DNA of 64,000 bases from Bacteroidota bacterium (GTDB taxonomy: Bacteria > CLD3 > SB21). This document shows, in pieces, positions 37,786-57,945 of the stretch; position 1 is the first letter of the stretch; each line of letters opens with the position of its first letter. The notes beneath the pieces are model-generated. The model was given only the letters and a program-made list of their open reading frames with translations, had not been told where the DNA came from and did no database searches. Made by a program: the position numbers and the translations under genes. The stretch lies in assembly GCA_037445875.1 (NCBI GenBank), contig JBBIJR010000001.1:4429-68428 (forward strand). The letters are read 5' to 3'.

Positions 37786-37975
37786 AACACGGTTCGTGAA
37801 GAAGAACGAGTTTTCTCGCCCATAAAGAGGCATGTCTGGAGAGCATGATAGAAGACGTGCGGCACGTCCGAGTGCCTCATGCTTTGCCAACCGTCTCGAG
37901 ATCCACCGAGTGGTCGGGTCCCCACGCATCCGGTTTGTGACCGCCCGCTGTCGACATCGGTCGCTTCAGCAAGAA

Positions 37976-38752: not shown

Positions 38753-38896
38753 GAAAGTCCTTTCTGTTTGCCGGTTGGAATACTAACGCTGCTGCCGCTG
38801 CAATCATTCCCGGCAGAAAAACTCTTGCAATTATTCATGATGTGGACGAAATTAGACTTCGAATTCCTTTCTCGCCACCCGGCCTTTCACATCGTC

Positions 38897-41056
38897 ATGG
38901 ATGATACGGTAAAAATCGAACGCCTGGGTCGCTTCAAAGTTATCGGCACGCTGGGACAGGGCGCGATGGGCATCGTCTACAAGGCCGTGGACGAGGTCAT
39001 CGACCGCACCGTGGCCATCAAGACCCTGCGCCTCGGCCATGACCTGAGCGAAGCGCAGATCGCCGAGTTCAAGCACCGGTTTCGTCTGGAGGCGCAACTC
39101 GCAGGCAAATTATCGCACCCCAACGTGGTGACGATCTACGACGTAGGGGAAGCGGGGGACCTGTCGTACATCGCCATGGAATTCGTCGACGGCAAGACCC
39201 TCGAGTACCTGATCGCCCACCAGCCGCCCAACTGGGAATCGCTTCAATCCATCGAATTCATGATGGAGGTGATGCTGCAGACCTGCGACGGACTGAACTT
39301 CGCCCACGAGCAGAACGTCACCCATCGGGACATCAAGCCCGCTAACATCATCATCTCGAAGAACGGCCATGTCAAGATCATGGATTTCGGCATTGCGAAG
39401 ATCTCCTCTTCCACGGGAACGGCCGTTGGGACGATCATCGGCACGCCGGGGTACATGTCGCCCGAGCAGATCGCGGGGCGTACCGTGGACGAACGCAGCG
39501 ATATTTTCTCGCTGGGTACCGTGTTCTACGAGCTGCTGACCGGAAAAAAGGCCTTCACCGGCAACAACATCACCGAGGTCATGTACAAGGTGATGAACGA
39601 GAACCCGACGCCCGTGCAGGTCGTCAACCCGCTGATCCCGCCGGTCTTCGACAACATCATCAGCCGGAGCCTGCGGCGCAACGCGGACGAACGCTACCGC
39701 AGCGTGGACCTCATGGCGCGGGACATCCGGAAGATCAAGCAGACGATCCAGCTTTCACGAACGATCTACGTGGACGGCGACCTCGTCGGTCCGCACGACA
39801 CCGTGCCGTTCTTACAGCGGCTCGGCATCAAGGACCTGAGGAAAGTGATCCTCGGACTCTCTGCCTACGGACTGCTCATGACGGTGCTGATGGTCGTTGC
39901 GTTCTGGACGGGGGGCGGCCGGTTCGACCGCATTGCCCGCTCCCTGACCAGCGTGCAGCCCGCCTCGATGAGGCTCGCGGTCAACGTTCCCGATGCGGAG
40001 ATCTTTCTCGACGACACCCGCCTGGCCAATCGCGGCGGGGCCGTACGGCTCGACACGGTCACCGTGGGTGAACACAAGCTGACCATCCGGCGCGAGGGAT
40101 ACGAGACGTACCAGACCGCGCTGGTATTCGGTGTGGGAGAGTCCAAGGACGTGAACGCCACTCTCCTGCTGGCGCCCTCCGAGATTCCGGCCAACGTCGA
40201 CACTTCGTATCTTACCGTGACGAGCGATCCCCCGATGGGCCGCGTGGAAACCAGCACCGGCCGCTTCGTCGGTTACACCCCCTTCGAGGAGCACATGTTC
40301 CCGGGGGGCAAGTATACTCTGCTGATCCACCGCCCGGACCACTTTACCTCCAAACGGGACGTCTCGCTGCGGCGCAACCGTGTTTCGTCCATCGATGTCC
40401 GTCTCGAGAAACACAAGGGTACCGTCTCTCTTGATGGCCTCCAGCCCGCCGGCGCTTCGTTGTTCGTGCACAACCGTGCCTTGCCGCGCACGGGCCGAGG
40501 AAATGCGTACCGTATCAGCGTGGGGGAACAGGTAGTGACCGTGAAGGCGGACGGTTACGTGCCCCTGGAAAAGAAGCTCACGATCGTGCGGGACAGCACC
40601 ATCGTGCTCACGGATTCCCTCAGTCCGACGTTCGGGATGCTGTGGGTGAAGTCGAACCCATCCGGTGCGGAGGTCTTCTTGAACGGGACGGATCGGTCGG
40701 TCGGTCGGACACCGTTGCTGGCCGGCCCACTGGTGGCCCACGGGCACACGGTCAAACTCAGCCTGAGGAGTGAATCACGATCCAGGCAGGTGCGGGTAGT
40801 ACAAAACGATACGACGGAAGTGCTGGTCACTTTTTCGCGTCCGAACGGATACCTCGACGTCGTGACCGAACCGCCCGGCGCGACCCTCTTCATCAACACC
40901 ATCCGCGAGCGCGATTTCCAGTCGCCGGGTTTGCTGGAAATCAAGCCGGGGTGGTACAAGATCCGTCTCTCGCATCCTAACTATCGCAAGTTCTACGAAA
41001 CCACCGTGAAAGTTCGACCGGAACAGGTTGTCAAAATAATCCACCGGTTCGAATAG
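38897..41056 (+). CDS. Serine/threonine protein kinase with TM segment and C-terminal PEGA domains
   Basis: Hanks kinase motifs GTLGQGAMGIVYKA, VAIK, HRDIKPANI, DFGIA and GTPGYMSPE, then a TM helix, then repeated PEGA-like modules (..GYETYQTALV.., ..PDHFTSKRDVSL.., ..PNYRKFYETTVKV..). Confidence 0.8.
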   Translation: MDDTVKIERLGRFKVIGTLGQGAMGIVYKAVDEVIDRTVAIKTLRLGHDLSEAQIAEFKHRFRLEAQLAGKLSHPNVVTIYDVGEAGDLSYIAMEFVDGKTLEYLIAHQPPNWESLQSIEFMMEVMLQTCDGLNFAHEQNVTHRDIKPANIIISKNGHVKIMDFGIAKISSSTGTAVGTIIGTPGYMSPEQIAGRTVDERSDIFSLGTVFYELLTGKKAFTGNNITEVMYKVMNENPTPVQVVNPLIPPVFDNIISRSLRRNADERYRSVDLMARDIRKIKQTIQLSRTIYVDGDLVGPHDTVPFLQRLGIKDLRKVILGLSAYGLLMTVLMVVAFWTGGGRFDRIARSLTSVQPASMRLAVNVPDAEIFLDDTRLANRGGAVRLDTVTVGEHKLTIRREGYETYQTALVFGVGESKDVNATLLLAPSEIPANVDTSYLTVTSDPPMGRVETSTGRFVGYTPFEEHMFPGGKYTLLIHRPDHFTSKRDVSLRRNRVSSIDVRLEKHKGTVSLDGLQPAGASLFVHNRALPRTGRGNAYRISVGEQVVTVKADGYVPLEKKLTIVRDSTIVLTDSLSPTFGMLWVKSNPSGAEVFLNGTDRSVGRTPLLAGPLVAHGHTVKLSLRSESRSRQVRVVQNDTTEVLVTFSRPNGYLDVVTEPPGATLFINTIRERDFQSPGLLEIKPGWYKIRLSHPNYRKFYETTVKVRPEQVVKIIHRFE

Positions 41057-41077
41057 TCCCCTCGTCGAGGATTGGAG

Positions 41078-41518
41078 TCAATTCAGTCGGACGTCCACCT
41101 CGGCGTGCTCGACGGTGTAGCACGTGACACCCCCGCAGTAATCGTCCTCGTCCACCCCGATCCCATCCCCATCCACTGCGACCACCGTATCTCCGTCGGA
41201 ACGAATATACAGCGCAAGGACCGAGTAGTCCTGATCGGCGGGAAGGACATAGGTAGTGCCGGCCGTCGTCAACGTATCCATCAACACGAGGTCGCCGTTT
41301 TCAAAGTCGCCGCGGAAAACCCAGACCGGAACGGCCGGGTTGCGGCTGTTGATGCTCGAGCGAACGACCAACTGGCCCTCGGTCGGGCGGACATCCACGC
41401 AGTCGCCCGGAGCCGTTATGCAGTCCTCGTCACTCTGCCACCAGGATTCGCATCCGAAGAACACCGCAGCAGCAATCAACGCCGTCAGGACCCCCCCCTT
41501 CCATCTCCGATTCGTCAT
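41078..41518 (-). CDS. Hypothetical lipoprotein
   Basis: Signal peptide with lipobox (AAVFFGCESW); no recognisable family. Confidence 0.4.
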   Translation of the reverse strand: MTNRRWKGGVLTALIAAAVFFGCESWWQSDEDCITAPGDCVDVRPTEGQLVVRSSINSRNPAVPVWVFRGDFENGDLVLMDTLTTAGTTYVLPADQDYSVLALYIRSDGDTVVAVDGDGIGVDEDDYCGGVTCYTVEHAEVDVRLN

Positions 41519-42081
41519 AGCTGACCTCCGACCCCAACATAGACCCGATGGCCGTCCGATGTGCGAGCGTCGGAGTACTGATAGCCGAATCGCACGAACA
41601 CGTAGCGGCTGAATTTGTACGACAGGCCTCCCCGGACAAGCGGAGTGAGTCCCTCTTTCTTTTCGATCTTGTGGCCCAGGAATGTCCCTTCACCTGTGCC
41701 GCGGTAATCTACGAACGTCAGACCGGCGCCGGCCGTAAGAAAGACATCCCACCGGTTGTTGATCCAGAACTTCTTGTCAAGGCCTGCAGCCAGCAGGAAT
41801 CGGTATTCCTGCAGTTGAAAATAGAAGTGGCTGCCGGCCTGCACAAGCACGGCCCTGGCGTACGGCCGGGCGTGAAAGGTGCCGAACAGGCCGAGAAACC
41901 TCTCTCCGCTGATCGAGTAACGGTAGAAAGCGCCGATCGACACGTCGTGGTCGAGAAAAGGCACTTCCACCAGCGCGGAATGCCTGTGACGGCTCTCGTA
42001 CGTCATGGCCCCTCCGCGATCAAACTGTCCGAAGAGCATCGCCGGCTGCGTCAACGCAAGCAGTAACAACCATCTTTTCAT
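41515..42081 (-). CDS. Outer-membrane beta-barrel protein (OmpW/porin_2-like)
   Basis: Signal peptide MKRWLLLLALTQPAMLFGQ, alternating amphipathic strands, and a C-terminal aromatic-rich strand (YVGVGGQL). Confidence 0.45.
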   Translation of the reverse strand: MKRWLLLLALTQPAMLFGQFDRGGAMTYESRHRHSALVEVPFLDHDVSIGAFYRYSISGERFLGLFGTFHARPYARAVLVQAGSHFYFQLQEYRFLLAAGLDKKFWINNRWDVFLTAGAGLTFVDYRGTGEGTFLGHKIEKKEGLTPLVRGGLSYKFSRYVFVRFGYQYSDARTSDGHRVYVGVGGQL

Positions 42082-42156
42082 CGGAACTCCTGTTTCGTAC
42101 AAGGGCTCGGACGTTCGCTCGCCCTGTTATGGCCCATTCGTCCGGGGCGGCGGCAA

Positions 42157-43212
42157 CTATGCGACGGTAATGTCCTTGTCAAGATAGACGTCCTGGATGG
42201 TGTGGAGCAGTTTGGCTCCTTCCTGCATCGGACGCTGGAAGGCCTTGCGGCCGGAGATCAGCCCCATGCCGCCGGCCCGCTTGTTGATCACAGCCGTTTC
42301 CACCGCCTCCGCCAGGTCGCTCGCTCCCTTGGACTCGCCCCCGGAGTTGATCAATCCGGCCCGGCCCATGTAGCAGTTGGCCACCTGATACCGCGTAAGA
42401 TCGATCGGATGCTCGCTGGTCAACTCGGTGTACACTTTCTTGTGCGTCTTGCCGAATTTGAGGGCCTCGTATCCGCCGTTGTTGGTGGGCAACTTCTGCT
42501 TGATGATGTCCGCCTGGAACGTTACGCCGAGGTGATTGGCCTGGCCCGTCAGGTCGGCCGATGTATGATAGTCCTTCTCCGGTGTCTTGAAAGCGCTGTT
42601 GCGCGTATAGCACCAGAGGATCGTTACCATGCCGAGTTCATGAGCGTACGCAAACGCCTCGCTGATTTCCTGAATCTGGCGCGTGGACTCCGCGGAGCCA
42701 AAATACACGGTGGCCCCCACCGCGGCCGCTCCCATGTCCCACGCCTGCTTGACGGAACCGAACAGGATCTGGTCGTACCGGTTCGGGTAGGAGAGGAACT
42801 CGTTGTGATTGATCTTGACGATGAACGGTATCTTGTGGACGAATTTACGGGCGCACGCGCCCAGCACACCGAAGGTCGAAGCTACTGCATTGCAGCCGCC
42901 CTCGATGGCCAGTTTCACAATGTTCTCCGGATCAAAATAGATGGGATTGGGGGCAAACGACGCGCCGGCGGAGTGCTCGATGCCCTGGTCCACCGGCAGG
43001 ATGGACAGGTAGCCCGTCCCGGTCAGTCGGCCGGTGTTGAACAGTTGCTGCAGGTTTCGCAGGACCTGCGGATTGCGATCGCTGTCCTTCCAGATGCGGT
43101 CCACAAAATCCGGGCCCGGCAGGTGAAGCTGATCTTTGGAAATGCCTTTGCACTGATGCTTGAGCAAGAAATCGGCGCGTTCACCGATGAGGTCTTGAAG
43201 GGATTTCATCAT
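42157..43212 (-). CDS. fbaB: Class I fructose-bisphosphate aldolase (FbaB/DhnA family)
   Basis: Near-colinear similarity to E. coli FbaB recalled from memory ([31 protein letters not shown], ...[13 protein letters not shown]...DVYLD..IT.A). Confidence 0.85.
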
Positions 43213-43226
43213 GGCTGATTCTCCGG

Positions 43227-44504
43227 TTAAGGTTTAGCTTTTTCGCCTTCACGTAACAGACGCGCGGGTTGTTTCCGTTCGACAGCGACGGTGCCGACGC
43301 CGTCTGCGAATTCGATCGAGGCCGCCTCTCCAACGGTCAGCCGCTGCACGCTCGAAACCACCCGTCCGGCCTGCCGTGTGATCGTGTATCCGCGGCTCAG
43401 CGTGTTGTGCGGGTTGAGATTCTGCAGGTGCCGCGCCAGATTGGCGATGTGCTGTTGAGCGAGCCGGAACTCGTTGGCCACATGGAACTGCAGCCGCCGG
43501 TCCAGTTCGTCAGCCAACTGGCGGTACTGCGCGACGAGGTTCTCGGGTTGGCGGAACGCATAGTGGTTCTGGATTTCCCGGACCGCCCTGCGCAGGTCCC
43601 GGACATGTTCGACGGTTCCCTGCTTCAATCCGTCGCGCAGGTCGTTCAGCCGCTGTTTCACTTCGCTTCGGTCCGGCGCCACGAGCTCGGCCGCCGCGGA
43701 GGGCGTGGCGGCCCGCACGTCGGAAACGAAATCGGCGATCGTGAAGTCGACTTCGTGACCGACCGCGCTGATGACGGGGATGGAACAGGCGAAGATCGCC
43801 CGTGCGACTCTTTCTTCGTTGAACGCCCACAGATCTTCGAGCGATCCTCCACCCCGCCCCACGATTAACACGTCGGCCTGGCCCCAGCGTTCCATGTCGC
43901 GGATGGCTCCGACGATCTCGTCCGCGGCTCCCGGTCCCTGAACGTTGACCGGAGCGAGAACGATCCGAATCCCCGGCCACCGCCGGTGAATAACGCTGAC
44001 GATGTCGCGGATGGCCGCCCCCGTCGGCGACGTGACGACGCCCACCGTTCCGGGGAACTCGGGCACGGGTTGCTTGTGCGCAGGATCGAACAGGCCCTCG
44101 TCGTACAATTTCCGCTTCAGTTTCTCCAACGCCAGCTGGAGCGCTCCGATGCCCTGCGGTTGCAGGTCCTGGACCACGATCTGGTACACCCCGCCCTTTT
44201 CGTACACGGCCAACCGTCCCTTCACGATCACCTTGATGCCCTCACGGAAAACAACGCTGATCTTCTCGGCCTGCGACCGCCACAGGACGCAGCGGATCTG
44301 CGCTCCCTCGTCCTTCAACGTGAAATATGTATGACCGGATCGGTGAACGGAGAGATTGGAGATCTCACCTTCGACCACCAGAAGAGGAAGTCCTTCCTCG
44401 AGGAGGAACTTGATACGGCGGGTGATTTCCGTAACGGTAAAGACGTGCGGTTGGGGAGGAGAGGTGTCTTCGTTGCCGGTGAGAGAAAAGAGGTCCATCG
44501 TCAT
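43227..44504 (-). CDS. xseA: Exodeoxyribonuclease VII large subunit
   Basis: N-terminal OB-fold ([44 protein letters not shown]) and catalytic core ([12 protein letters not shown]...GRGGGS). Start chosen at MTMDLF. Confidence 0.85.
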
Positions 44505-44512
44505 GTCCGGCC

Positions 44513-45100
44513 TTACAGTTTCATGACCCAGGAACATCCTGCGAGTACATAGGCGCCGTTGATGTCCGAGCGGGAACTGCTGGCGAACGGAGAACCCATC
44601 AGGCCGAAGCCGATGTGCGGAGCCAGCAGCGAGCGCGATCCCACGGACGTACGGTAGGCAAGGAGGCCAAACACGCTGAGCGTCTTCAGCTTTCTGCTGT
44701 CCCTGAAGTAGATATTGCCGGATACGCCCAGGCTCCAGACCAGGCCCTGGCCGATCATGTCGGAATAGTGATTAAGCGTCGCCGCCCCGCCGATTCCGTG
44801 AATCCATTCCCTCGATGACGACCGGCCGATGGTGTCGTTCTTGAACGTCTCCCATCTCGAACTGTACCCACCGATCAGTGTGACCGTTTGGCGCGAGGTC
44901 TTTTGCTTTTTCGTGGTTACCTGAAATTCCCACAGCGGGCCCGTGAGGTTATTGAAACTCGTCATGAAACCGACGAACTGCGTCGTTTTGATCTTCGGTT
45001 TGTCCTTCCGCGTGGTGACTTTTCGCTGCGCTTCCGCCGCAGCCGGAGCCGCCCACGCCACGCACCATCCGATCACCAGCCAACGATGCAGCGGGTTCAT
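44513..45100 (-). CDS. Hypothetical outer-membrane beta-barrel protein
   Basis: Signal peptide (WLVIGWCVAWAAPAAAEAQ), alternating-hydrophobic strands, and a C-terminal aromatic residue. Confidence 0.4.
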   Translation of the reverse strand: MNPLHRWLVIGWCVAWAAPAAAEAQRKVTTRKDKPKIKTTQFVGFMTSFNNLTGPLWEFQVTTKKQKTSRQTVTLIGGYSSRWETFKNDTIGRSSSREWIHGIGGAATLNHYSDMIGQGLVWSLGVSGNIYFRDSRKLKTLSVFGLLAYRTSVGSRSLLAPHIGFGLMGSPFASSSRSDINGAYVLAGCSWVMKL

Positions 45101-45795
45101 GGATTGGTCTTTTCGTACTTCTTCAACTGATACCCGTCCGGCACCTCCAACCGGAATAGATCGTCCTTAATCTTTCCGTTCAATTTGAAGTCGGAAAATT
45201 CCCAGATCGTGGCATCGCCGTCGGATTCCTGCAGTTCTGCGCCGTACGGCAGCCAGAGATCGTCACGGATGAGCACGATGATCTTTTCCAGTTTGCCGTG
45301 CAACGGTGTGTTTTTCAGCGGCGTCAACTCCATGCGGTAGGAGCCGAATTTCTTGTCGGATGTCCGCGGGTCTACCTGTACATCGAAGAGGGTCTCCAGT
45401 TGATCGGCCGAATTGCCAAAACCCATCATGTAGTGCGAAACGTTGAGTTCCGATTCGCCCGTGGTCGTGACCGTTTTGTTCTTATGGTTGACGATCCAGA
45501 CCTGTTGGTCGTTGATGATGTACTCGTTCTCGTCGGACGAACTCGGATCCAGCCGGTATTTTCCCGGTTTCACGTAGTAAAAGCGGGCGCGGGTCACGAC
45601 TTCCTTTTCCATGAACGAAGAGATCTTCCTCTGTTTCATCCGTGCCTGAAGCGTCGTGAGCGCCTCGTTCGCGCTTTTCATGTTCGCCAATACGGTCTTC
45701 TTTTCTTCGTCGCCCGGTTTGGAAAACGCCACACCGGCGAGAAGAAGAGCGCAAAGGATCCAGGAGAGAACGGGCAGGAAACGCGAGGTAACCAT
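45097..45795 (-). CDS. LolA-like outer-membrane lipoprotein-sorting protein
   Basis: Signal peptide MVTSRFLPVLSWILCALLLAGVAFS, then a LolA-fold-like ~200-aa body. Start chosen at ATG 45795; the ORF-track N-terminal extension is not protein-like. Confidence 0.55.
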   Translation of the reverse strand: MVTSRFLPVLSWILCALLLAGVAFSKPGDEEKKTVLANMKSANEALTTLQARMKQRKISSFMEKEVVTRARFYYVKPGKYRLDPSSSDENEYIINDQQVWIVNHKNKTVTTTGESELNVSHYMMGFGNSADQLETLFDVQVDPRTSDKKFGSYRMELTPLKNTPLHGKLEKIIVLIRDDLWLPYGAELQESDGDATIWEFSDFKLNGKIKDDLFRLEVPDGYQLKKYEKTNP

Positions 45796-45954
45796 GATCG
45801 GTTCTTTCAGCTTTCGATGATGTTTTGCAAGGCATGAATACCTTCGGACGTGTTCGGGTAACCTTGCGGGGGGAAGATACCCAATTTGGTTTTTTGACGC
45901 AACGAATAATGTCGCCCCCGTTGAATTGTTTCCCGATTCGCCGTATCTTCGCGC

Positions 45955-46425
45955 ATGAAACCGACCGTGAAGATCCAACCCGACACATTTGCCCCCCTTC
46001 CCAAACACGTGGCGGAAGGCCTGCGTACGCGCATTGCCCATCATCAGACCCAGGGGATCTTCGGCTTCCGCATCGAGGACGTGCGGGAACAGTTCTGCCT
46101 GATGGTGCTCCCCTATCGGGAGGAGATCACCAACGGCGTCCGCAGCCGCGGCACGGTGCACGGCGGCATCGTCGCTTCGCTGGCGGACACGGCGGCCGCC
46201 ATTGCCCTGGCCACCTGTTTCGAGGGACAGATGAGCTTTGCCACCGTGGACCTGCACGTCACGTACGTCGCTCGTGCACAGTCATCGCTGTACGCGTACG
46301 CCCGCGTTATCCGCAAGGGCTCTCGCATCAATGTCTGCGACGTGGAGATCGCCGATGAGTCCGGCCAGCTCGTGGCCAAAGCGATCGTCAATTTCATCCT
46401 CACCAAAGCCGTCGAACCGAAGTGA
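45955..46425 (+). CDS. PaaI/MenI-family hotdog-fold acyl-CoA thioesterase
   Basis: GTVHGGIVASLADTAAAIAL motif of the PaaI thioesterase family. Confidence 0.75.
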   Translation: MKPTVKIQPDTFAPLPKHVAEGLRTRIAHHQTQGIFGFRIEDVREQFCLMVLPYREEITNGVRSRGTVHGGIVASLADTAAAIALATCFEGQMSFATVDLHVTYVARAQSSLYAYARVIRKGSRINVCDVEIADESGQLVAKAIVNFILTKAVEPK

Positions 46426-46474
46426 AAGTCTGTCGGTGAAGAATTCCCTCTGGGCCCCTCCCAGGGCCTGGTTC

Positions 46475-47446
46475 ATGATATTTCGCATCCTTGCCGTGGT
46501 CGTCTGGTCCGTGATGACGGTCACCGTGAGCACCGCCGCCGCCTTTCTCGAAAGCGGCCGGCTGGACTGGCTGAACTATCTTCTGACCCTGGCCATCGCC
46601 TCGACGGTGCAGGGGTTCCCCGCTCACATCGTGAACGAGATCATGGACTGGCAGACCGGGGCCGACCGCTTCAGGAAACTCGGAGAAAAATCGGGCGGCA
46701 GCAAGGTGCTCAAGGCGGGCCTGGCCACGGTGCCTCAACTGTGGTGGATGTTCGGGGTTACGTCGCTGATCGGTTTCCTGCTGATCGCACTGCTGTACTT
46801 CCGGACGGGTCCGGCGGTGATAGTTTTTTTTGCCGTCGGATATTTTGTGAGTTTGTTTTATACCTTGCCTCCTTTCCGTTTCTCTTACCGGCCGTTCGCC
46901 GGTGAGTGGCTCGGCGGATTCCCCGGCGTTGTGCTCACTATCACGGGGACGTATTATGTGCAGACCGGCCGTATTTCCGCGCGGGCGCTGTTTCTCGCTG
47001 TCTGGATCGGCCTCGTATACGTATCGATCATGGTCCTTTTTCACTATCTTGACTACGAAGGCGACCGGCAAGCCAGACCGATGAAACGCACCACGATTGT
47101 CTTTCTCGGTCTGCGGCGGAGCAAGCGGTACGTCCTGGCTCTTCTCCTTCTCGCGGGCGTCCTGTCGACGGCTCAGGCGTGGAAATCGCCGCCGCTCTAC
47201 TGGCTGATGCCCTTGTCGGTTGCGGTCTATGGGATCATCCACCTTCGATGCGACCCGTCCTCTGCGGAATCGGTTGTGCGACAGGGACGCCTGTTGACCT
47301 ACGCCGTCATGGCCTTCTCGTTGGCCTTTTCCGTGACGGCCGAACCGCGGCTCGCCGTGGCCGGACTGATGACCCTGGCGGCGTTCTATTTGCACAAGAA
47401 GTTTGGTAAACTCCGGAGCCTTAAACCGGCAAAGGAACCTTCGTGA
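46475..47446 (+). CDS. UbiA-superfamily prenyltransferase-like membrane protein (atypical first Asp-rich motif)
   Basis: Eight or nine TM helices. The second motif YLDYEGDRQA (DxxxD) is present. The first motif is NEIMDWQTGAD rather than the canonical NDxxDxxxD. Its 3' 108 nt are duplicated at 50478-50585. Confidence 0.7.
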   Translation: MIFRILAVVVWSVMTVTVSTAAAFLESGRLDWLNYLLTLAIASTVQGFPAHIVNEIMDWQTGADRFRKLGEKSGGSKVLKAGLATVPQLWWMFGVTSLIGFLLIALLYFRTGPAVIVFFAVGYFVSLFYTLPPFRFSYRPFAGEWLGGFPGVVLTITGTYYVQTGRISARALFLAVWIGLVYVSIMVLFHYLDYEGDRQARPMKRTTIVFLGLRRSKRYVLALLLLAGVLSTAQAWKSPPLYWLMPLSVAVYGIIHLRCDPSSAESVVRQGRLLTYAVMAFSLAFSVTAEPRLAVAGLMTLAAFYLHKKFGKLRSLKPAKEPS

Positions 47447-47491
47447 AATTCGAATACTCCGAGTGGCAGGCGGATCTCATCAAGCAGAACA
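47339..47491. repeat. Direct repeat copy 1 (153 bp, ~97% identical to 50478..50630)
   Basis: Aligned by eye: gccgaaccgcggctcgccgtggccgga...aaaggaaccttcgtgaaattcgaatactccgagtggc.ggcggatctcatcaagcagaaca, with 5 mismatches over 153 bp. It spans the UbiA gene 3' end plus the first ~48 nt of a vWA-gene CDS. Confidence 0.8.
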
Positions 47492-47548
47492 ATTCGGCGA
47501 TCCGCCCTCCCCTATCGACTTGATGGCAACGATCAGCGGGTTGGACGG
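47449..47548 (+). pseudogene. Relic of a vWA-domain gene: the first 14 codons of the 50582 gene joined out of frame to a diverged internal segment
   Basis: 47449-47491 matches 50582-50630 (VKFEYSEWQADLIKQN). 47492-47540 then matches 50969-51020 at ~83% (caattcggcgatcc...gatggc.acgatcagc). The intervening 338 nt are missing, which is not a multiple of 3, and a stop follows. Confidence 0.55.
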
Positions 47549-47569
47549 GTTCCCGCTTGTTAGGACCGT

Positions 47570-49492
47570 TCATCGGACCAAGGCCATCTTTATCGTTCGC
47601 GTCTGTCGTCCGACCCGCAGGCGGCAGAAGTAAACCCCGCTGGCCAAGGCGCGGCCCGAACGGTCGCGACCGTCCCAGACCACGACGTGCGGTCCGGCAT
47701 TCTGGGTATCGCTTACGAGCGTCGAGACATGCTGTCCCAATGCGTTGTAGATGGACAGCGTCACAGGGCCGGCCATCGAAAGATCATAATGAATGCGCGT
47801 AGTGGGATTGAACGGATTCGGGAAATTCTGGTGCAGGCTGAAGAGCCAAAGGCGTCCCGTCTCGCGGCCGACGGACACTGGTTGGGTTGTCCACTCGGCT
47901 TGTTCCATCAAATGTCCATAGTGAGGTGGGAGGATGTCCTCGAGCGGCCGTCCGTAGCCGTCCAGGGTCCACGCTTTGGCATCGACGACCGCGCGGAACG
48001 CGCGGCGGTAGATCAGCCGGGCTCGGACGCGATAGGACTGCGATGAATCCGGGATCGAAAACGTATAGGTCGTGGTGTCGGAAGCGAACGGCGCAATTCG
48101 ATCGTCGGATACGATACCCGTCGCGTCGGTGTAAAAGACGGGGCTCGCGCCCGTGGAATCGTGATTGATTTTGCCGTAGAATTTACCGGGAAGACCGGCA
48201 TAATACCCAAGATGTGGATCGCCAACGCCGCCGAGCGGGTGAACGGTTTGAGATCCTGTGAACACGAGCGCCGTCGAATCCGTTTCACGCCACGCCTCAA
48301 CGAGCAGGATCATGTTGCGGAAAGTTACTCCGGTCGGCACATGGTGTCCCGTCGCATGGTTGGTGATGACCCCTTCCACGCGGAGCGTCGTATCGTCCTT
48401 TTCGACGTGAAGGTCCAGCGTGACGGCATTTTCCAGGTACCACGCCGTCGTACCTTCGAACCAATGACTGCGAATCGTCGATGAATCGCGAACGACCGGG
48501 TCAACCGTGCAGATTTGGGTCGCACCGTAGGAGGGCATATGGCACGTCACACACGTGGCGAAGTGGGCGGAGGACGTGTCGGCGTAGGGACTTGCCAGCC
48601 ATTCCAGGTACGTGGGCTCGGAAATGACACCGTTGGGTTCTTCAAAATCACCGTCATCGTCCGGATCGTTCTTGTCTTGATGACACGACGCGCATACGGC
48701 GGCCGTGAGCTGGGGTTGGTACGAAGGACGCATTAATGGCGCGGTAAAGTAACTGACGTCTCCGAGCACCCCATATTGGACCTGGCTAGAAACGGGAGAT
48801 GGTCGGGTAAAGGTGACGACGCCCGGATAGATGCCGGGAAAATTTGTTCTGGTTTCATCTATGTGCGCGATCTTGTGGCATACCTCGCAGGACACGCCGG
48901 CGAGCGCATTGGCGGAAGGACTGTTGAAATCGTCGAGCAGCGTGAAAGGATCGTCAATCCAGACCTGCGGCTGATGGCAGGACGCACATTCGGAATTTGG
49001 ATTGATGCTCGCATGGTGGGAGTCCCGTGTATAGACAAAACCTCCCATGCCGCCCGATGTGCCGGTACCGTTATAGATGTCGTACACCCATGTATTCAAC
49101 CCGGCATGAGCCATGGCGGATGTGGTCCATTGACTCCATTGATCCGGGTGACAGGCGCCGCACGTCGATGGATCCATGAACGTGTAGGAATTGTTGGTAT
49201 CCTGGGGGACACGTTCCATCACAAGGAGCAAACTGTCTTCAGGTGTGCTGGTTATGGCAGAGCCATTGTAAAAGGCCGGTTTGGCCCCGACGACAACAAG
49301 AGAGGTCCCGCTCGCCTCGGCCAGATGGAAATATCCGTTGGAGTCGGTGGTCGTTCGAATCGTGGTGGCCCGAACAGAAACCAAGGCGCCGACCACAGGG
49401 CTCATATTGCCCTCTTCTTTCAACCAGCCCGATACCTGGGCAAAAACCGACGATGGCCATAGAGTCAATACCAGCATGAACCGAAGACTCAT
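47570..49492 (-). CDS. T9SS-sorted multiheme (pentaheme) c-type cytochrome with N-terminal carboxypeptidase-regulatory-like domain
   Basis: Signal peptide MSLRFMLVLTLWPSSVFAQ. Five CxxCH motifs: CGACH, CASCH, CEVCH, CASCH, CVTCH. C-terminal Por secretion tail (NFPNPFNPTTRIHYDL...LSIYNALGQHVSTL...GVYFCRLRVGRQTRTIKMALVR). Confidence 0.75.
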   Translation of the reverse strand: MSLRFMLVLTLWPSSVFAQVSGWLKEEGNMSPVVGALVSVRATTIRTTTDSNGYFHLAEASGTSLVVVGAKPAFYNGSAITSTPEDSLLLVMERVPQDTNNSYTFMDPSTCGACHPDQWSQWTTSAMAHAGLNTWVYDIYNGTGTSGGMGGFVYTRDSHHASINPNSECASCHQPQVWIDDPFTLLDDFNSPSANALAGVSCEVCHKIAHIDETRTNFPGIYPGVVTFTRPSPVSSQVQYGVLGDVSYFTAPLMRPSYQPQLTAAVCASCHQDKNDPDDDGDFEEPNGVISEPTYLEWLASPYADTSSAHFATCVTCHMPSYGATQICTVDPVVRDSSTIRSHWFEGTTAWYLENAVTLDLHVEKDDTTLRVEGVITNHATGHHVPTGVTFRNMILLVEAWRETDSTALVFTGSQTVHPLGGVGDPHLGYYAGLPGKFYGKINHDSTGASPVFYTDATGIVSDDRIAPFASDTTTYTFSIPDSSQSYRVRARLIYRRAFRAVVDAKAWTLDGYGRPLEDILPPHYGHLMEQAEWTTQPVSVGRETGRLWLFSLHQNFPNPFNPTTRIHYDLSMAGPVTLSIYNALGQHVSTLVSDTQNAGPHVVVWDGRDRSGRALASGVYFCRLRVGRQTRTIKMALVR

Positions 49493-50477
49493 GTCAATCT
49501 CCCGGATTGGATGCCGATGCGTACAGTTTGCCCGTGGACGAATCGCCAATACGTCTGTACATCCCTATTCCTTCGGGCCGCACGTCATGGTTTCACATGG
49601 TTGATCGCTGCGTTACTCGTCCCAAAACCGATCCATCTCCTCGAGGGTCGAATCCTTCATTTCGCGGTTCATCTCCGGCTCGTTTTCTCTCCGCACACCG
49701 CCCGGAGGAAGGAAATGTCCGTCACGTCTTTCATGGGCGCGAGACACAGCGGAGTGTCGATGTCAATCGGGCCGATGCGCAAGGAATTAGCATACGGAAA
49801 TAGCGGCTGAATATCAACACGCACAGGGACGGATCGAGCAAAGAAAAGTCCCGGCCTTACGCCCGATGGCCTCATCAACCAGCGCCGGCCTTGTCAGGTT
49901 GCCCTTGCCTTTGCATGGGCCTTTTCCTATTTTCTCCCAAGGGAGAGATACCGGAAGAAACACGCAGCCGGTGTCCTCTTATCTTTGGATTCACACCGGC
50001 CGGTATCCTTCCACGGAATAGAGCCTTCTTCTTAAGGAGGCCCGTGATAAAACGGGTGAAAACATCGCTGGCGATCTGCTCGTCGTCTTGTCGTGTGATA
50101 TGGTTTCGATTGCCGCACGGTCAACGTGATCGAAGGAATCGTCGTTCGCGCGTATTCGTATCTTCCCGTCGCTTGCGCGCGCGTGCGCATCCAGGGCTAA
50201 AATGAATTCGTGCTGACCGTCACGGATGGGCACTTCACGCTCGTCACCGACCTCGACCATGGAACGAACGTCAAGATGACGGCAGGCAACACCCAACTGA
50301 CCGACCAGTGGCGCGAGTCCAAACACTCCCGGGCCGTCTCTAATCCGATATTCCTGCAGATCTACAACGGCACGGACGTCAACGGCACGTCAGGGGTGTA
50401 TCCGATCCTGTGGAGGAAACCGGCGACAACATCATCGTCAACAACAGCGACGGCCATTGCGCCTTTTATTTGCTGCC

Positions 50478-50630
50478 GCCGAACCGCGGCTCGCCGTGGC
50501 CGGACCGATGACCCTGGCGGCGTTCTGTTTGCACAAGAAGTTTGATAAACTCCGGAGCCTCAAACCGGCAAAGGAACCTTCGTGAAATTCGAATACTCCG
50601 AGTGGCGGGCGGATCTCATCAAGCAGAACA
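50478..50630. repeat. Direct repeat copy 2 (153 bp), covering the start of the intact vWA gene
   Basis: See copy 1. The flanks differ on both sides (47330-47338 vs 50469-50477; 47492 onward vs 50631 onward). Confidence 0.8.
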
Positions 50631-51676
50631 TGAAGTTCGAGGATCTGCTCAACTTGTTCAACCAGCTGTTGCTGTACACCAACGGCGATGTGGCCGAGGC
50701 CCTTCGATGGATGACGGAACTCGACAAGCACCATCACATTTTCTCCGGCGAAATGGGCTTCGACGAGTTTTACCAGCGACTGAAGGACGAGGGTTACATC
50801 CGGGAAGAATCACCGGACCGGCCGGTGCTGACACCCAGGGGTGAAAAGAAGATCCGGCAGGACTCGCTGGACGAGATCTTCTCTTCGCTGAAGAAATCGC
50901 CGCACGGACTGCACGAAACGCCGCATACGGGCAAGGGCGTCGAGCGTCTGAGCGAAACAAAACCGTACCAATTCGGCGATCCCCCTTCGAATATCGACCT
51001 GATGGCCACGATCAGCAACGCGATGAAACACAGTACGTACGACGAGATCGATCTGCGCGAGGACGATTTTGAGGTATACGAAAGCGAGCACCTCACGTCC
51101 TGTGCGACCGTCCTGGCGATCGACACCAGCCACAGCATGGTGTTGTACGGCGAGGATCGTATCACGCCGGCCAAGAAGGTCGCGCTCGCGCTGGTGGAAC
51201 TCATCCTGAGCCGGTATCCGAAGGACAGTCTCGATGTGATCACCTTCGGAGACGACGCTCAGCCCATCGACCCGGAGGACATCCCGTACATCGAGGTCGG
51301 CCCCTTTCACACCAACACCAAAGCGGGGTTGCGTCTCGCGCGCCAGCTCCTGCGAAAGCGGCGCAACCGCAACCGGCAGATCTTCATGATCACCGACGGA
51401 AAACCGTCCTGTATATGGGAAGAGGGCCGTCTCTACAAGAACCCCTTCGGGCTCGACCGAAAGATCATCAACCAGACCCTCCAGGAGGCCGCCCAGTGCC
51501 GCAAGGACGAAGTCGTGATTTCTACGTTCATGATCGCGGATGATCCTTCCTTGACGCGCTTTGTGGACACTTTGACCAAAGTCAACAAGGGGCGCGCCTT
51601 CTACGCAGGCCTCAGCGAACTGGGCCAGTACATTTTTGTGGACTACATACGGAACCGGCGGAAGAATCTGAGGTAA
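50582..51676 (+). CDS. von Willebrand factor A (vWA) domain protein, CoxE/ChlD-like
   Basis: MIDAS motif LAIDTSHSM with downstream T and D residues (ITDGKPS). GTG start preceded by aaaggaacc; alternative ATG at 50630. Confidence 0.75.
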   Translation: MKFEYSEWRADLIKQNMKFEDLLNLFNQLLLYTNGDVAEALRWMTELDKHHHIFSGEMGFDEFYQRLKDEGYIREESPDRPVLTPRGEKKIRQDSLDEIFSSLKKSPHGLHETPHTGKGVERLSETKPYQFGDPPSNIDLMATISNAMKHSTYDEIDLREDDFEVYESEHLTSCATVLAIDTSHSMVLYGEDRITPAKKVALALVELILSRYPKDSLDVITFGDDAQPIDPEDIPYIEVGPFHTNTKAGLRLARQLLRKRRNRNRQIFMITDGKPSCIWEEGRLYKNPFGLDRKIINQTLQEAAQCRKDEVVISTFMIADDPSLTRFVDTLTKVNKGRAFYAGLSELGQYIFVDYIRNRRKNLR

Positions 51677-51736
51677 CGCCCCACCACGCACACACACGCC
51701 TTACCCGATGTAGCGGCCGAGGCTCGGTCTCTGAAG

Positions 51737-52246
51737 CTATTTCTCGGCCAACAACTTGAATTCAGGCAGTCTCATCCTGTATTCCTTGCGTACGGACTCA
51801 GTCGTCTCATCCGCGTTCGGTTGGTCATCGGAATACGAGTCCGTCAGCTGGAGCGTCGTCGTGCCCCCTGTGCCCGATTGGAGGAAGAACCGAATGGAGC
51901 AGACGTAGTGTCCCTTGTCCGGTTCCCAGATGAACCGGAGTTCCTCGCCCGCTTTGGCAAAGGACACGATCATCGTTCCGTGGTCCCCGGCCAGCGTGCC
52001 TGCGGCATGATCACCCACCACGGCCAGCGAAACGCCTTTCCCATCGTCGAACGTGAACTGGCTCAGCGTGCGGATTCCATCCGGTGACGTCAACCGGGAC
52101 CAGACCTTGTCTGCCGCGGCCTTGATTTCTATCTTTACCGAGACCGATACGAAAGCACTCTTCTTCGTGGGCATGTCCTGCGGAACGGAGCCGCCCGTCT
52201 GACAGCTCCCCAGCAGGACAAAAGCAAAAAAGGTTGCAGTGCGCAT
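51737..52246 (-). CDS. Hypothetical lipoprotein, SRPBCC/AHSA1-like fold suspected
   Basis: Signal peptide with lipobox (FAFVLLGSCQTG). ~150-aa body with an alpha/beta pattern resembling activator-of-Hsp90 ATPase / polyketide-cyclase-like proteins; weak. Confidence 0.45.
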   Translation of the reverse strand: MRTATFFAFVLLGSCQTGGSVPQDMPTKKSAFVSVSVKIEIKAAADKVWSRLTSPDGIRTLSQFTFDDGKGVSLAVVGDHAAGTLAGDHGTMIVSFAKAGEELRFIWEPDKGHYVCSIRFFLQSGTGGTTTLQLTDSYSDDQPNADETTESVRKEYRMRLPEFKLLAEK

Positions 52247-54028: not shown

Positions 54029-55792
54029 ATGAAAGCCCTCTGTGCGTTGTTTCTGCTGAGTGTGACGCCCATCTACGCCGCCTTCGGTCAATGGGTAACG
54101 GGCGGGCCCGATGGGGCCACGGTGAACTGTGTGACTATCGATGGTTCGAATGTCTTTGTGGGAACGGCCACCACCGGGCCATTTCGGTCCACGAATGGCG
54201 GCTCGGCCTGGACGGCCGCCAATCAAGGAATCGGAGACGTGTACGTCTACGCGATCCTGATAGACGGGAGCAACGCGTTCGCCGCTACCAACGACGGCGC
54301 GTATCTGTCCACCGATGACGGGGTAACCTGGATCGGAATCAACAACGGCCTGACCAACCAGTTCGTCAACGCCATCGCTCTCAGCGGTCCCGTGCTCTAT
54401 GCCGGAACCAACGCTGGCGTGTTCAAATCCACCGACAACGGTTCTAGTTGGACGGAAATCAACAACGGACTAACCAATACGTTGGTAAACGCCGTCGCCG
54501 TCACCGGTCCAACGGTCTTCGCAGGAACAAGCGGCGGCGCATTTATCTCCACCAATGAAGGATCCACGTGGGTGGAGTCGGACAGCGGGTTGACCGCCGT
54601 GTATGTGACGGCGTTCACCGTGAGCGGATCCAACGTCTACGCGGGAACGTTCGACGGCGGTGTCTTCGTTTCTACAAACGGCGGAATCAGTTGGAGTCCT
54701 TCCAACGCGGGACTGACGTCCACCAGCGTACTATCGTTGGCTTCCGAAGGATCTACCGTCGTGGCCGGGACGAGCACGAGCGGCGCCTTTCTATCGACGG
54801 ACAATGGCGCCAACTGGAATGCCATCACCAACGGACTCACAACGCCCGATGTTCGTGGTATCGACTTAAACGGCTCGACCCTCGTTGCCGGCACGACTGG
54901 AGGAGTGTTCGTTTCAACCAACGGAGGGTCTAGCTGGCAAGTCTCGAATGGCGGGCTGGTGGGCACGATTGTTTGGGCCATGGCAACCGAGGGTTCGACT
55001 CTATTCGTGGGCACGCAGGCGTATGGTATCTCCGTTTCTTCCAATGACGGATTGAGCTGGACGACAGCTAACAACGGTCTCTCGAGTCCCACCGTTCGGT
55101 CGTTCACCGTGAATCCATCCGGCGTCTTTGCCGGAACTCAAGATGCCGGTGTTTACCGTTCTACCGACGCCGGGGCAACCTGGTTTGCTGCCAACGGCGG
55201 AATCACAAGCTCCGGTGTCATCGCCCTGACGACCAGCGGCTCGAATCTGTTTGCCGGGTCGAACACGGGGGCTTATCGGTCCACCGATAACGGTGCCAAC
55301 TGGACCGCGGTCAACTCGGGATTAACGGATACATACGTCACTTCACTGCTCTCGACAGGATCAACCGTTCTGGCAGGAACCCAGAGCGGCGGAGTGTTCC
55401 GAACGACCGATAACGGCGCGAATTGGATCGATGCCAACAACGGGCTGACCTATCCGGCCATTCGCACGCTGGCGGTGAACGGTCCAATCGTGTACGTCGG
55501 AACGCAAGGCGGCATCTTCACGTCGACCGATGAGGGAGTTAGCTGGAATCTGCTTTCGTATGTGACGAACGTTAACAGCTTTGCTTTTTCAGGGACGGCC
55601 ATCCTGGCGGCTGTCGGCGGTTATGGAATGCTCCTCTCCACGGACGGCGGAGCCAATTGGGATTTCATAAACGAAGGTCTGCCGACTTGCGGGTCCTGTC
55701 CGCTGCGGTATTTTTGCACTTTCAGCAACAACGCGCGAAGAATCCGGCGCTTCGTATTACGGAATCATGGAACTGTCGGGAAATGTGGGTGA
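54029..55792 (+). CDS. Secreted BNR/Ycf48-like repeat beta-propeller protein
   Basis: aaggag RBS, signal peptide, and ~13 tandem ~40-aa repeats of the form (F.STD.G.SW...N.GLT...V..L...G....AGT..G). The ORF leaves this pattern after ...FINEGLPT and ends in non-protein-like sequence, suggesting a frame disruption near 55680-55767. Confidence 0.6.
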   Translation: MKALCALFLLSVTPIYAAFGQWVTGGPDGATVNCVTIDGSNVFVGTATTGPFRSTNGGSAWTAANQGIGDVYVYAILIDGSNAFAATNDGAYLSTDDGVTWIGINNGLTNQFVNAIALSGPVLYAGTNAGVFKSTDNGSSWTEINNGLTNTLVNAVAVTGPTVFAGTSGGAFISTNEGSTWVESDSGLTAVYVTAFTVSGSNVYAGTFDGGVFVSTNGGISWSPSNAGLTSTSVLSLASEGSTVVAGTSTSGAFLSTDNGANWNAITNGLTTPDVRGIDLNGSTLVAGTTGGVFVSTNGGSSWQVSNGGLVGTIVWAMATEGSTLFVGTQAYGISVSSNDGLSWTTANNGLSSPTVRSFTVNPSGVFAGTQDAGVYRSTDAGATWFAANGGITSSGVIALTTSGSNLFAGSNTGAYRSTDNGANWTAVNSGLTDTYVTSLLSTGSTVLAGTQSGGVFRTTDNGANWIDANNGLTYPAIRTLAVNGPIVYVGTQGGIFTSTDEGVSWNLLSYVTNVNSFAFSGTAILAAVGGYGMLLSTDGGANWDFINEGLPTCGSCPLRYFCTFSNNARRIRRFVLRNHGTVGKCG

Positions 55793-56060: not shown

Positions 56061-57945
56061 GTGCGCACGTCCGTGAAGGCTATCCGACCGGTCTGGATTT
56101 GGGCGATTGCGCTCCCGACGGTGGTCTGGATCGGACAGGATCTTCAGAGTCAAGTCCGATACGCGACTTCAGTTACTAGCTTCAGTTCCGAGTACAACGC
56201 TTCGCCCGGTAACTGGTCCGCTTACCAGACAGTCGGCGCGCCCAACACATACCCGTCCTATGGCGACCTCAGTACGGCCTGGGCCAGCCTGACCGCCGAC
56301 GGTCAGCGGGAGTTCCTCGAGTTGAGCTACGCCTTCCCTCCGCCTTCCCCGATCACAACCATTCGAATCTACGAGACCTTCAATCCGGGTGCGGTGGATA
56401 CCGTCTACGTGAAGAACCCGGGGACCGGACAGTGGGTGAAAGTGTGGGAAGGTACGGCCAGTCCGGCCCCCGCAGCGGCCAGGATCTTCACCGTGAATTT
56501 TCCGGTAACTGCTTTCAACGTGGGGCAGATCCGCATTGCTCTGAATTCTCCGGCCGTTGCCGGCTGGAACGAAATCGATGCCGTCGGAATCTCGAACGAT
56601 ACCGATCCCACGAAATATCACGGAGGCGCGTACGATGGACACGACGATATCATTGCATCTTTTTCCAACCTGGACGGCGTTTCCCCTGCATCGGCAAAAT
56701 TCCTGGGGGGGGTCGTTCGACGGCTTCTCGGAGGTATCGTCGGCGTTTGGCGCACTCGACGGGACAGCCCCGTCCGCCGCGAAGTTCATCGGTGGATCCT
56801 ATGACGGACAGGACGAGGAAGTGGGCGCTTTTGCGTCGCTGGACGGTATTCCGCCCAACATCGTCAAATTCCGCGGTGGTTCCCATGACGGCCATGCGCT
56901 GCTCTCCGGCAGTCTGTCGGGCTTCAATGGCGGCACTCCTTCCGCTTCCAAATTCCACGGCGGCTCCTACGATGGCCATTCTCAGATCGCCTCTCGCGGG
57001 CTGGGATTCAACGGCGACACGGCAAGTCTGGCCAAGTTCTACGGAGGACCTCATGACGGCTTCGCCCATCTGGCTTCTGCGTTCGGAAATCTGATGGGTG
57101 TGTCGCCGACCCTGTCGAAGTACGTGGGTGGCTACGATGACGGATACACATTGTCTACTTCCGGACTGACGTACTTTGCAGGACCACCCGATCCGTCCAA
57201 GTACCTCGGCGGCATCGATGACGGCTACGCGCAGTTGGTCGGCCCGTTCTCCAATTTCGCCGGCCTGTCACCCTCGATAACCAAGTACGCGGGTGGTCCG
57301 GGGGACGGCTACGGGTTCGAATTCTCCGAAATCGACATTTCGCTGCCGGTGGAACTGGCGTCCTTTCAAGTAGCGGTCATACCCGGGCGCGGCGTCGTGA
57401 GACTCCAATGGCGCACGGAATCGGAAATCGACAACGCATACTGGTTGGTCATGCGGCGAACGGCTTCGGACTCTCTCCGCACCGTCACCCAACTTCGCGG
57501 CATGGGCACGAAAGCGTCGTCAACCGAATACGAGTGGACGGACCGTGAACTGGAACTCGACACACTGTATTACTACCGCCTGGCTGATGTTTCGTATAAC
57601 GGCTCGATCACGCACCATGACGAACTGGCCGTACGTGTGGACGCTCCGGACGAGGTAGAGCTGTTCGGCAACTTCCCCAATCCATTCAATCCCGAAACGT
57701 CCATCCGGTTTGCCCTTCCGCGGAAAGCCGAAGTCTATCTCGTTGTTTACAATTCTCTGGGCCAGCAGGTGAAGGTCCTCTCGAGTCGGAGCTTCTCCGC
57801 AGGGTTCCATACCCTTCGCTGGGACGGCACCAACGAGTCCGGCCGATTCGTGTCGAGCGGTGTGTACCTCTATCGCTTGCTGATCCGATTGTCCGATCCC
57901 CCACAGCGCCGGATCCGCACCGGCCGTATGATGCTCGTACGTTGA
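56061..57945 (+). CDS. T9SS-sorted surface protein with an N-terminal discoidin-like domain and ~9 tandem 28-aa K(F/Y)xGGxxDG repeats, interrupted by a +1 frameshift at a poly-G tract
   Basis: ORFs 56061..56804 and 56557..57945 carry the same repeat family in two frames (KYHGGAYDGHDD..., KFIGGSYDGQDE..., KFRGGSHDGHAL..., KFHGGSYDGHSQ...). The frames meet exactly at the G8 run 56705-56712; 7 or 10 G would restore one ORF. C-terminal Por secretion tail (GNFPNPFNPETSIRFAL...VVYNSLGQQVKVL...GVYLYRL). Confidence 0.65.
56705..56712 (+). repeat. Homopolymeric G8 tract inside a coding repeat
   Basis: Read directly as ttcctgggggggg tcg. It encodes the Gly-Gly of a repeat unit and is the site of the frame change. 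Confidence 0.9.

Follow-up and report, generated by a model that had tools for sequence, protein, structure and literature searches.

Contig JBBIJR010000001.1 of a Bacteroidota bacterium (assembly GCA_037445875.1) was analysed over a stretch of 64,000 nt, which is called the window here and whose own numbering is used for all positions. In this window, a gene encoding a UbiA-family prenyltransferase and a gene encoding a vWA-domain protein are separated by a segment that carries an intact gene for a pentaheme c-type cytochrome with a sorting domain of the type IX secretion system (T9SS), designated cyt1, together with decayed pieces of other genes. The junction of the UbiA and vWA genes stands on both sides of this segment, as a 153-nt direct repeat, and five related lineages have a single copy of the junction and no cytochrome at the site. 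It is somewhat more probable than not that the arrangement was left by a duplicative insertion, specific to this lineage and made without an integrase (Campbell-like, or "additive"), followed by deletional decay.

The duplicated junction

A repeat search and a whole-window self-BLAST recovered a direct repeat between 47339-47491 and 50478-50630, 153 nt long and ungapped, with five mismatches (96.7% identity, E 3.6e-68), which agrees with the two ~97% identical 153-bp copies reported in the initial annotation of this DNA. The spacing of the two copies is 3139 nt. The longest exact stretch common to both is 45 nt (50563-50607) and is the sole shared stretch of more than 31 nt; neither search found a second repeat of similar quality anywhere in the 64-kb window. 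The content ascribed to the copies in the initial annotation, a UbiA end plus a vWA start including its GTG, is also confirmed by the sequence and the list of open reading frames (ORFs). In each copy, the final 108 nt of the UbiA-family gene run into the opening 49 nt of vWA, whose GTG (47443 or 50582) overlaps the UbiA TGA; in the left copy this stop codon occupies 47444-47446. The two copies are as follows.

47339-47491, plus strand: left junction copy, with the functional UbiA 3′ end and a relic vWA start (GTG 47443)
50478-50630, plus strand: right junction copy, with a relic, non-functional UbiA 3′ end and the functional ribosome-binding site and start of vWA

The boundary 50477/50478 between the right copy and the 73 nt that precede it is sharp. 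UbiA homology to the left of 50478 and vWA homology to the right of 47537 were no better than those of shuffled sequences.

The right junction was also recovered in an independent assembly. A Logan contig of 1888 nt from run SRR11582173 (L175) is 100% identical to 48704-50591, reproducing the passage from the 73-nt stretch into the right copy without a mismatch, and an exact 111-aa ORF across the scrap of a second cytochrome gene (cyt2) and the right copy is found in it as well. The contig ends inside 50563-50607. Since a k-mer assembler is expected to break in an exact stretch shared by two copies, this end point fits the presence of both copies in the reads. Across 789 nt of cyt1, the spacer and the scrap of cyt2, L175 continues without a break, which speaks against a further near-identical copy of this DNA in the same sample.

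The empty site in related lineages and the age of the duplication

Of the relatives found, a JGI metagenome contig (L082) is the closest, being 92.5% identical to the window over 37973-47491 and then over 50478-51750. Synteny with L082 spans 9.5 kb; its UbiA and vWA genes overlap by 4 nt, and its single junction, at 9897-10049, matches both copies of the window. Four further lineages (L083-85, L170-171, L172-174 and L001), with vWA proteins 84-85% identical to that of the window, have the order thioesterase-UbiA-vWA with -4 to +66 nt between UbiA and vWA. No cytochrome lies at the UbiA-vWA site in any of these five relative lineages or, as found by tblastn, in any of 165 loci, among which a UbiA gene beside vWA is confined to this clade. 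A metagenome scan with the vWA protein gave, among the matches listed, only relatives of 63% identity or less and no extra filled or empty sites.

Because all five relative lineages show a single-copy empty site, the filled arrangement is the derived state. The initial annotation had predicted such an empty site and had supposed that the cytochrome is variably present; the site was found in all five lineages, and presence indeed differs between lineages, the gene being absent from this position even in the closest relative. Relatives sharing the filled arrangement, which would have spoken against that prediction, were not encountered.

A three-way alignment of the 153-nt copies and the L082 junction contains seven L082-specific sites, three right-copy-specific sites and two left-copy-specific sites, so that the two copies are closer to one another than either is to L082. 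The three changes of the right copy all lie in the UbiA tail, which is non-functional there, and of the two changes of the left copy one lies in its likewise non-functional vWA head. Divergence between the copies is 3.3%, compared with a synonymous divergence (dS) of 0.23-0.31 between the window and L082. Thus, barring gene conversion, the duplication took place well after the split from the L082 lineage.

The identity between the window and L082 is a mosaic, mostly 95-98% and dropping to 75-85% at 44433-45180, which covers a hypothetical 195-aa gene and the start of LolA, and at 46733-47030, inside UbiA. These patches look like homologous-recombination imports from more distant lineages or places of locally fast evolution.

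Gene remains inside the insert

The sequence between the two junction copies was resolved into the following parts.

47490-47537, plus strand: scrap of vWA, 48 nt, equivalent to 50969-51016, joined to the left copy across a 340-nt deletion with the frame shifted
47538-47569: 32 nt between the vWA scrap and the cyt1 stop codon, vWA similarity no better than chance
47570-49492, minus strand: cyt1, intact 640-aa secreted pentaheme c-type cytochrome, recognised by CxxCH motifs, TIGR04183, Pfam and homologues
49493-49613, minus strand: short intergenic stretch from the MazG scrap to cyt1, no Rfam match
49614-49690, minus strand: 3′ scrap of mazG (nucleoside triphosphate pyrophosphohydrolase), ~24 codons, with a premature stop after WDE
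49693-49800, minus strand: 5′ scrap of dus (tRNA-dihydrouridine synthase), first 30 codons and ~18 nt upstream
49801-50043: 243-nt spacer separating the Dus scrap from the divergently oriented cyt2 pseudogene, without family or homology match
50044-50404, plus strand: cyt2 pseudogene, the 5′ third of a paralogous T9SS multiheme cytochrome gene, truncated at its 3′ end
50405-50477: 73 nt adjoining the right copy, UbiA homology no better than chance

In the initial annotation, the sequence between the copies was described as unrelated to either flanking gene and as including about 0.9 kb of non-coding, structured DNA. This description does not hold. Positions 47490-47537 are a piece of vWA whose homology overlaps that of the left copy by 2 nt (a CA microhomology). 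It differs from the vWA gene of the window at 7 of 48 positions (85% identity) and from that of L082 at 2 of 48 (96%). The left copy thus opens a vWA pseudogene from which a deletion at this microhomology removed 340 nt, and only 48 nt more of the gene follow before it is cut off. The supposedly non-coding 0.9 kb holds the scraps of MazG, Dus and the second cytochrome. As to structure, the 553-nt spacer folds with z = -0.94 and the interior of ~0.9 kb has no Rfam match at E ≤ 1; with an ordinary fold energy and no family, a structured RNA in the spacer was rejected.

Searches of Pfam (E ≤ 10), NCBIfam and PDB sequences gave no support for Dus or MazG in the spacer, and tblastx and blastn searches of the spacer against the fetched loci and the rest of the window returned no match. 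The two scraps were identified only through the native neighbours of a cyt1-like gene in a related contig (L176). By tblastn, residues 247-266 of the L176 MazG align at 49675-49616 (80%, E 1.2e-7) and the first 29 residues of its Dus at 49782-49693 (77%, E 2e-10); the nucleotide identity of the Dus scrap to L176 is 78.5% over 93 nt.

The cyt2 pseudogene begins with a GTG at 50044 behind AAGGAGG (50034-50040), followed by signal-peptide codons. It is disrupted by a frameshift past the signal peptide, an in-frame TAA at 50198-50200 and the 3′ truncation at 50404, and an internal deletion of ~132 nt (50287/50294) takes out the first heme motif. Coding periodicity is strong on the plus strand over ~50180-50420 in a codon-position GC plot. 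An exhaustive phmmer search matched the frame to a 621-aa protein of cyt1-like architecture (P0242, E 1.6e-16), which is 31% identical to cyt1. In tblastx, a gene of contig L166 is 63% identical to 50099-50287 and 68% identical to 50294-50404 at the amino acid level. The intact cyt2-like gene of L166 is directly followed by a gene for an 812-aa Sortilin/CarboxypepD_reg protein with a T9SS tail (10001-14333 for both), and the pair may constitute a two-gene surface module.

About 30-100 nt upstream of the dead cyt2 start, a hairpin with a 13-bp stem, GGAGAGATACCGG at 49942-49954 and CCGGTATCCTTCC at 50000-50012, surrounds a match to TAnnTTTG (49980-49987). Hairpin and motif may be what remains of a regulatory site, which would now be oriented towards vWA. 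The motif is not enriched in the window (7 occurrences versus 9.6 expected), and for this reason its presence upstream of the cyt2 scrap was rejected as promoter evidence. The minus strand of 50405-50465, which could be read as the start of a response regulator (MAVAVVDDD...), is too short to test and was dropped.

Source of the inserted DNA

A cyt1-like gene with 70% amino acid identity to cyt1 occurs in relatives (cluster of P0002, member P0247). In six contigs (L176-L181) its native surroundings have the order CMD, hypothetical gene, Dus, esterase, TPR, MazG, cyt1-like gene, all on one strand. The Dus scrap, the MazG scrap and cyt1 have the same order and orientation. Since the scraps keep the native gene order, the insert is a piece of ordinary chromosome, namely a decayed copy of the Dus...MazG-cyt1 locus plus the cyt2 pseudogene. 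About 4.5 kb has been deleted between the Dus and MazG scraps, since the esterase and TPR genes lie between them in L176-L181.

For the L082 lineage, the syntenic locus is seen in L182, a contig of the same metagenome as L082 (JGI 3300037465), which contains TPR-MazG without a cytochrome after mazG. Its mazG is followed by a 604-nt gene-free gap (1598-2201), where L176-L181 carry the cyt1-like gene, and tblastn found no cyt1 remnant in this gap. The MazG scrap is 76% identical to the mazG of L182 and 73% identical to that of L176 at the nucleotide level, and these two are themselves 74% alike over the scrap stretch. With moderate confidence, the MazG scrap can thus be assigned to a lineage other than these two, provided that mazG does not fall into a diverged patch of the kind found in the window-L082 alignment. 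The donor as a whole was, with similarly moderate confidence, a related but distinct lineage; this accords with the vWA scrap, which is closer to L082 than to the resident vWA, and with the lack of cyt1 homologues of 71-100% identity in the protein collection searched.

The GC content of the insert is 0.571, and that of the window 0.589. The comparison of composition and codon usage with the flanks proposed in the initial annotation thus revealed no difference, and compositional foreignness of the insert was rejected. Run SRR24576371 contains L081 with a cyt1-like gene, L166 with one like cyt2 and L170 with the empty UbiA-vWA site, three contigs whose GC content is ~0.55. This suggests that both cytochrome types are normal chromosomal genes of the clade, located elsewhere.

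Origin of the duplication

Campbell-type integration by a single crossover is seen, for example, with suicide plasmids and with chimeric donor DNA in naturally transformable bacteria. The arrangement in the window resembles it in that the direct repeats are two copies of one contiguous chromosomal segment, the flanking genes are intact, relatives are single-copy and lack the insert, and the repeats could recombine to reverse the event. It is unlike the usual examples in that the remaining homology is 153 bp and the insert is a decayed chromosomal fragment rather than a replicon.

The starting point was the state displayed by the relatives, with UbiA and vWA adjacent and translationally coupled. 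In the line leading to this genome, a chromosome fragment, originally of at least ~7.5 kb, was placed between them, consisting of the 5′ part of cyt2 and then the divergent dus-esterase-TPR-mazG-cyt1 block. Because the target junction ends up on both sides of the insert, neither gene was broken; UbiA is completed by the left copy, while vWA takes its ribosome-binding site and start from the right one. The donor DNA probably entered by recombination through at least 539 bp of UbiA-vWA homology on the incoming molecule, a stretch that would begin 108 nt before the end of UbiA and reach nt 435 of vWA. A single crossover with a circular or permuted donor would duplicate the homologous stretch exactly, and the limits of homology at 50478 (UbiA) and 47537 (vWA) are what it would leave. 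The right end of the left copy would be of donor type, which fits the non-resident allele of the vWA scrap. Subsequent decay deleted 340 nt of the left vWA, ~4.5 kb from dus codon 30 to mazG codon 246 and 132 nt in cyt2; point mutations inactivated the rest of cyt2, cyt1 survived, and the 153-bp repeat is the leftover of the duplicated homology. It may also be that the insertion took place in a different strain and was passed on to this genome by ordinary allelic recombination. The five differences between the 153-nt copies are too few to place the crossover point.

Several points weigh against an insertion of this kind. No circular or permuted donor molecule has been seen, and the linkage of UbiA-vWA homology to a foreign fragment has no explanation. 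The collinearity of the scraps is equally expected from a tandem duplication whittled by deletions. The lineage comparisons rest on short scraps (48-77 nt), while the divergence between the window and L082 is itself mosaic, with the patches of 75-85% described above. The scraps were compared with the genes of relatives, the resident copies of mazG, dus and cyt2 being located beyond the ends of the 64-kb window. GC content and codon usage that match the resident genes suit a close donor and, equally, an intragenomic source. Finally, no second assembly backs the left junction, which comprises the repeat, the vWA scrap and the 3′ end of cyt1.

Tandem duplication followed by deletional remodelling, known from bacterial duplication-amplification studies, is the main competitor of the insertion and seems unlikely. 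In this case, a segment from UbiA to beyond cyt2 would have been duplicated head-to-tail, the first copy being whittled down and the second keeping vWA. The collinear and consistently oriented scraps would come from nested deletions in one unit, the duplicated junction would need no special donor molecule, and native GC content and codon usage would follow; the retention of one functional copy per gene is also as known from such remodelling. However, no second dus, mazG, cyt1 or cyt2 occurs in the 12 kb downstream of vWA or elsewhere in the window. The leftovers are far more diverged from the genes of the resident lineage than the junction copies are from each other: the MazG scrap is ~75% identical to the mazG of the L082 lineage and the vWA scrap 85% identical to the resident gene, compared with 97% for the junction copies. 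In addition, L175 covers cyt1 sequence, spacer and cyt2 scrap continuously and breaks only in the junction repeat, and the TPR-MazG locus of the L082 lineage has no cytochrome. The initial annotation had offered Campbell-type integration and remodelled tandem duplication side by side; on balance, the findings speak somewhat against the second in its simple form, a tandem copy of resident DNA.

The 153-bp copies would be long enough for RecA-dependent deletion, which would restore the ancestral junction with loss of cyt1, and excision in the present-day population is possible in principle. A more active role for the segment can also be imagined. That the segment is a live, integrase-free "recombination cassette", looping out as a circle with cyt1 and one junction copy, is nonetheless quite improbable. 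If it were so, the circle or DNA of lysed cells could enter relatives at the UbiA-vWA junction by a single crossover, and the surface pentaheme cytochrome would be a strain-variable trait swapped by homologous recombination alone.

It is very improbable that the filled state is ancestral and that the relatives lost the segment, although recombination of the 153-bp repeats would leave exactly the single junction of L082. All five relative lineages are empty, including those with 84% vWA identity that branch outside the pair of the window and L082. The two copies are closest to each other, sharing seven differences from L082, and their 3.3% divergence is small against a dS of ~0.25 to L082.

Little credence can be given to an assembly artefact, in which a chimeric or duplicated contig join would have made the second copy. 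The contig was assembled from a metagenome, and repeats are classic misassembly points. However, the copies differ at five positions and share at most 45 nt of exact sequence, both outer flanks are syntenic with L082, and the independent Logan assembly of SRR11582173 is identical over 48704-50591, the right junction included, so the artefact feared in the initial annotation did not materialise there. Next to the left copy stand a diverged vWA scrap and a microhomology deletion, which an assembler could not have made up.

A conventional mobile element (an insertion sequence (IS) or transposon, an integrative island or a phage remnant) with the cytochrome as cargo is as scarcely credible. A lineage-specific insertion between direct repeats would suit it, but the repeats are a 153-bp gene-gene junction and not an att core or a target duplication of 2-14 bp, for which, as the initial annotation stated, they are far too long. 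No terminal inverted repeats occur at the ends of the insert. Pfam revealed no transposase and no integrase or recombinase domain in any ORF of the insert, in accordance with the initial annotation, and the remaining insert ORFs have no Pfam match at all. The 64-kb window contains no tRNA. The features of an IS or transposon are thus missing from the insert, as are those of an integrase-borne island or prophage, and the interior consists of scraps of housekeeping genes in native chromosomal order.

Flanking genes and other features of the window

The genes on either side of the insert are intact.

46475-47446, plus strand: UbiA-family prenyltransferase, 323 aa, Pfam PF01040 (77.7 bits)
50582-51676, plus strand: vWA-domain gene, 364 aa, Pfam VWA_2

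Matches of the UbiA protein to MenA-like NCBIfam models are weak and below the cut-off. The amino acid identity to the L082 orthologue is 90% for UbiA and 97% for vWA, with ratios of nonsynonymous to synonymous divergence (dN/dS) of 0.16 and 0.06, respectively; both genes are still under purifying selection. The vWA start now lies 3.1 kb from UbiA. Its translational coupling to UbiA would have been lost, and transcription would have to begin within the insert, where the promoter that once served cyt2 may be used; the promoter of vWA has probably changed.

Just 3′ of vWA, 120 nt (51751-51870) are not present in L082, whose alignment resumes at 51871. Self-BLAST also disclosed diverged (74-88%) internal direct repeats at 5367-6003, at 29629-29949 versus 30789-31113 and at 54329-54510. 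Repeated protein domains or neighbouring paralogues are the probable cause at these three places, and Tandem Repeats Finder reported nothing in the window.

The pentaheme cytochrome cyt1

The initial annotation had recognised a T9SS-sorted pentaheme cytochrome on the minus strand, and the analysis bears this out. The cyt1 product has five CxxCH motifs, at aa 111, 169, 202, 267 and 314, all of them invariant in an alignment of eight sequences, as expected of a multiheme c-type cytochrome. The C-terminal T9SS type A sorting domain scores 35.6 bits with TIGR04183 (cut-off 23); the Pfam model Por_Secre_tail gives 20.6 bits, under its cut-off of 27. The N-terminal domain is CarboxypepD_reg-like according to Pfam, and the N-terminus itself, MSLRFMLVLTLWPSSVFAQ, is hydrophobic as judged by eye only.

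In a protein collection of ~5.8 billion sequences, full-length homologues are 51-71% identical to cyt1, and no homologue lies between 71% and 100% identity. Exact look-ups of the cytochrome and vWA proteins, both taken with their longest-ORF starts, and of protein P0001 matched no record. The family has more than 890 database matches of ~640 aa, whose source labels include Eisenbacteria, Gemmatimonadota and Latescibacteria. Its common features are the CarboxypepD_reg-like N-terminus, the five invariant CxxCH motifs and the T9SS sorting C-terminus; a GH..P.GV.RNM motif is invariant as well. A solved structural relative was not found (best PDB match E 0.16). Cyt1 resembles the MtrC/OmcA cytochromes in being a secreted multiheme c-type protein with weak matches to MtrC/MtrF domain II/IV and to OmcA/MtrC models, below the cut-offs (TIGR03507, 19.7 bits, cut-off 209; PF22113, 25.5 bits, cut-off 30). 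With these scores and five hemes instead of ten, it does not belong to the OmcA/MtrC decaheme family, from which it also differs by its predicted export through T9SS instead of type II secretion with a porin-cytochrome complex. No paper on T9SS together with multiheme or CXXCH cytochromes turned up in the literature searched.

The codon usage of cyt1 resembles that of the resident genes. Its 640 codons are intact while the neighbours have decayed, which suggests that the gene is kept by selection. Transcription of cyt1 may start in the region that once held the dus promoter, which has a sigma-70-like hexamer pair at 49817-49789, or in the short spacer between mazG and cyt1. T9SS-type C-terminal domains, 42-53% identical to that of the cyt1 family, also end the ORFs at 32288-32569 and 57646-57942. 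The genome therefore encodes several T9SS cargo proteins.

Comparison with known routes of gene gain and significance

The event recorded in the window is an ordinary kind of genome rearrangement, and neither a new class of element nor a new mechanism is involved. A related route is homology-facilitated illegitimate recombination in natural transformation (de Vries and Wackernagel 2002; Prudhomme et al. 2002; both cited in PMC2884548). Foreign DNA is likewise gained via homology, no site-specific enzymes are involved, and breakpoints are sharp, with a microhomology of 0-2 nt. That process normally replaces or deletes DNA of the recipient at the illegitimate end, whereas in the present case 153-539 bp of the target would have been duplicated. 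PMC2884548 reports for small strain-variable segments, or "microdiversity" loci, that ~10-18% are flanked by direct repeats, mostly shorter than 30 bp, which are read as substrates of slippage. The present insert is similar to the segments described there in being small, free of known mobile-element features and attributable to illegitimate or homologous recombination, and it is unlike most of them in that its repeat is 153 bp long and is a gene-gene junction.

The locus provides a natural example of gene gain by recombination without dedicated mobile machinery, in which both neighbouring genes stay intact and the redundancy is then eroded. The scraps of vWA, MazG, Dus and cyt2 permit the reconstruction of the source locus and of the order of events. 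The pair of repeats could destabilise the cytochrome in populations and mislead assemblers. For the cell, the outcome would be the gain of a lineage-specific extra T9SS-sorted pentaheme cytochrome. The family to which it belongs may merit study of its own: possibly, it represents widespread and hardly described T9SS-exported multiheme proteins, and if this is true, the T9SS multiheme family could be a distinct route of extracellular electron transfer in the FCB group and allied phyla.

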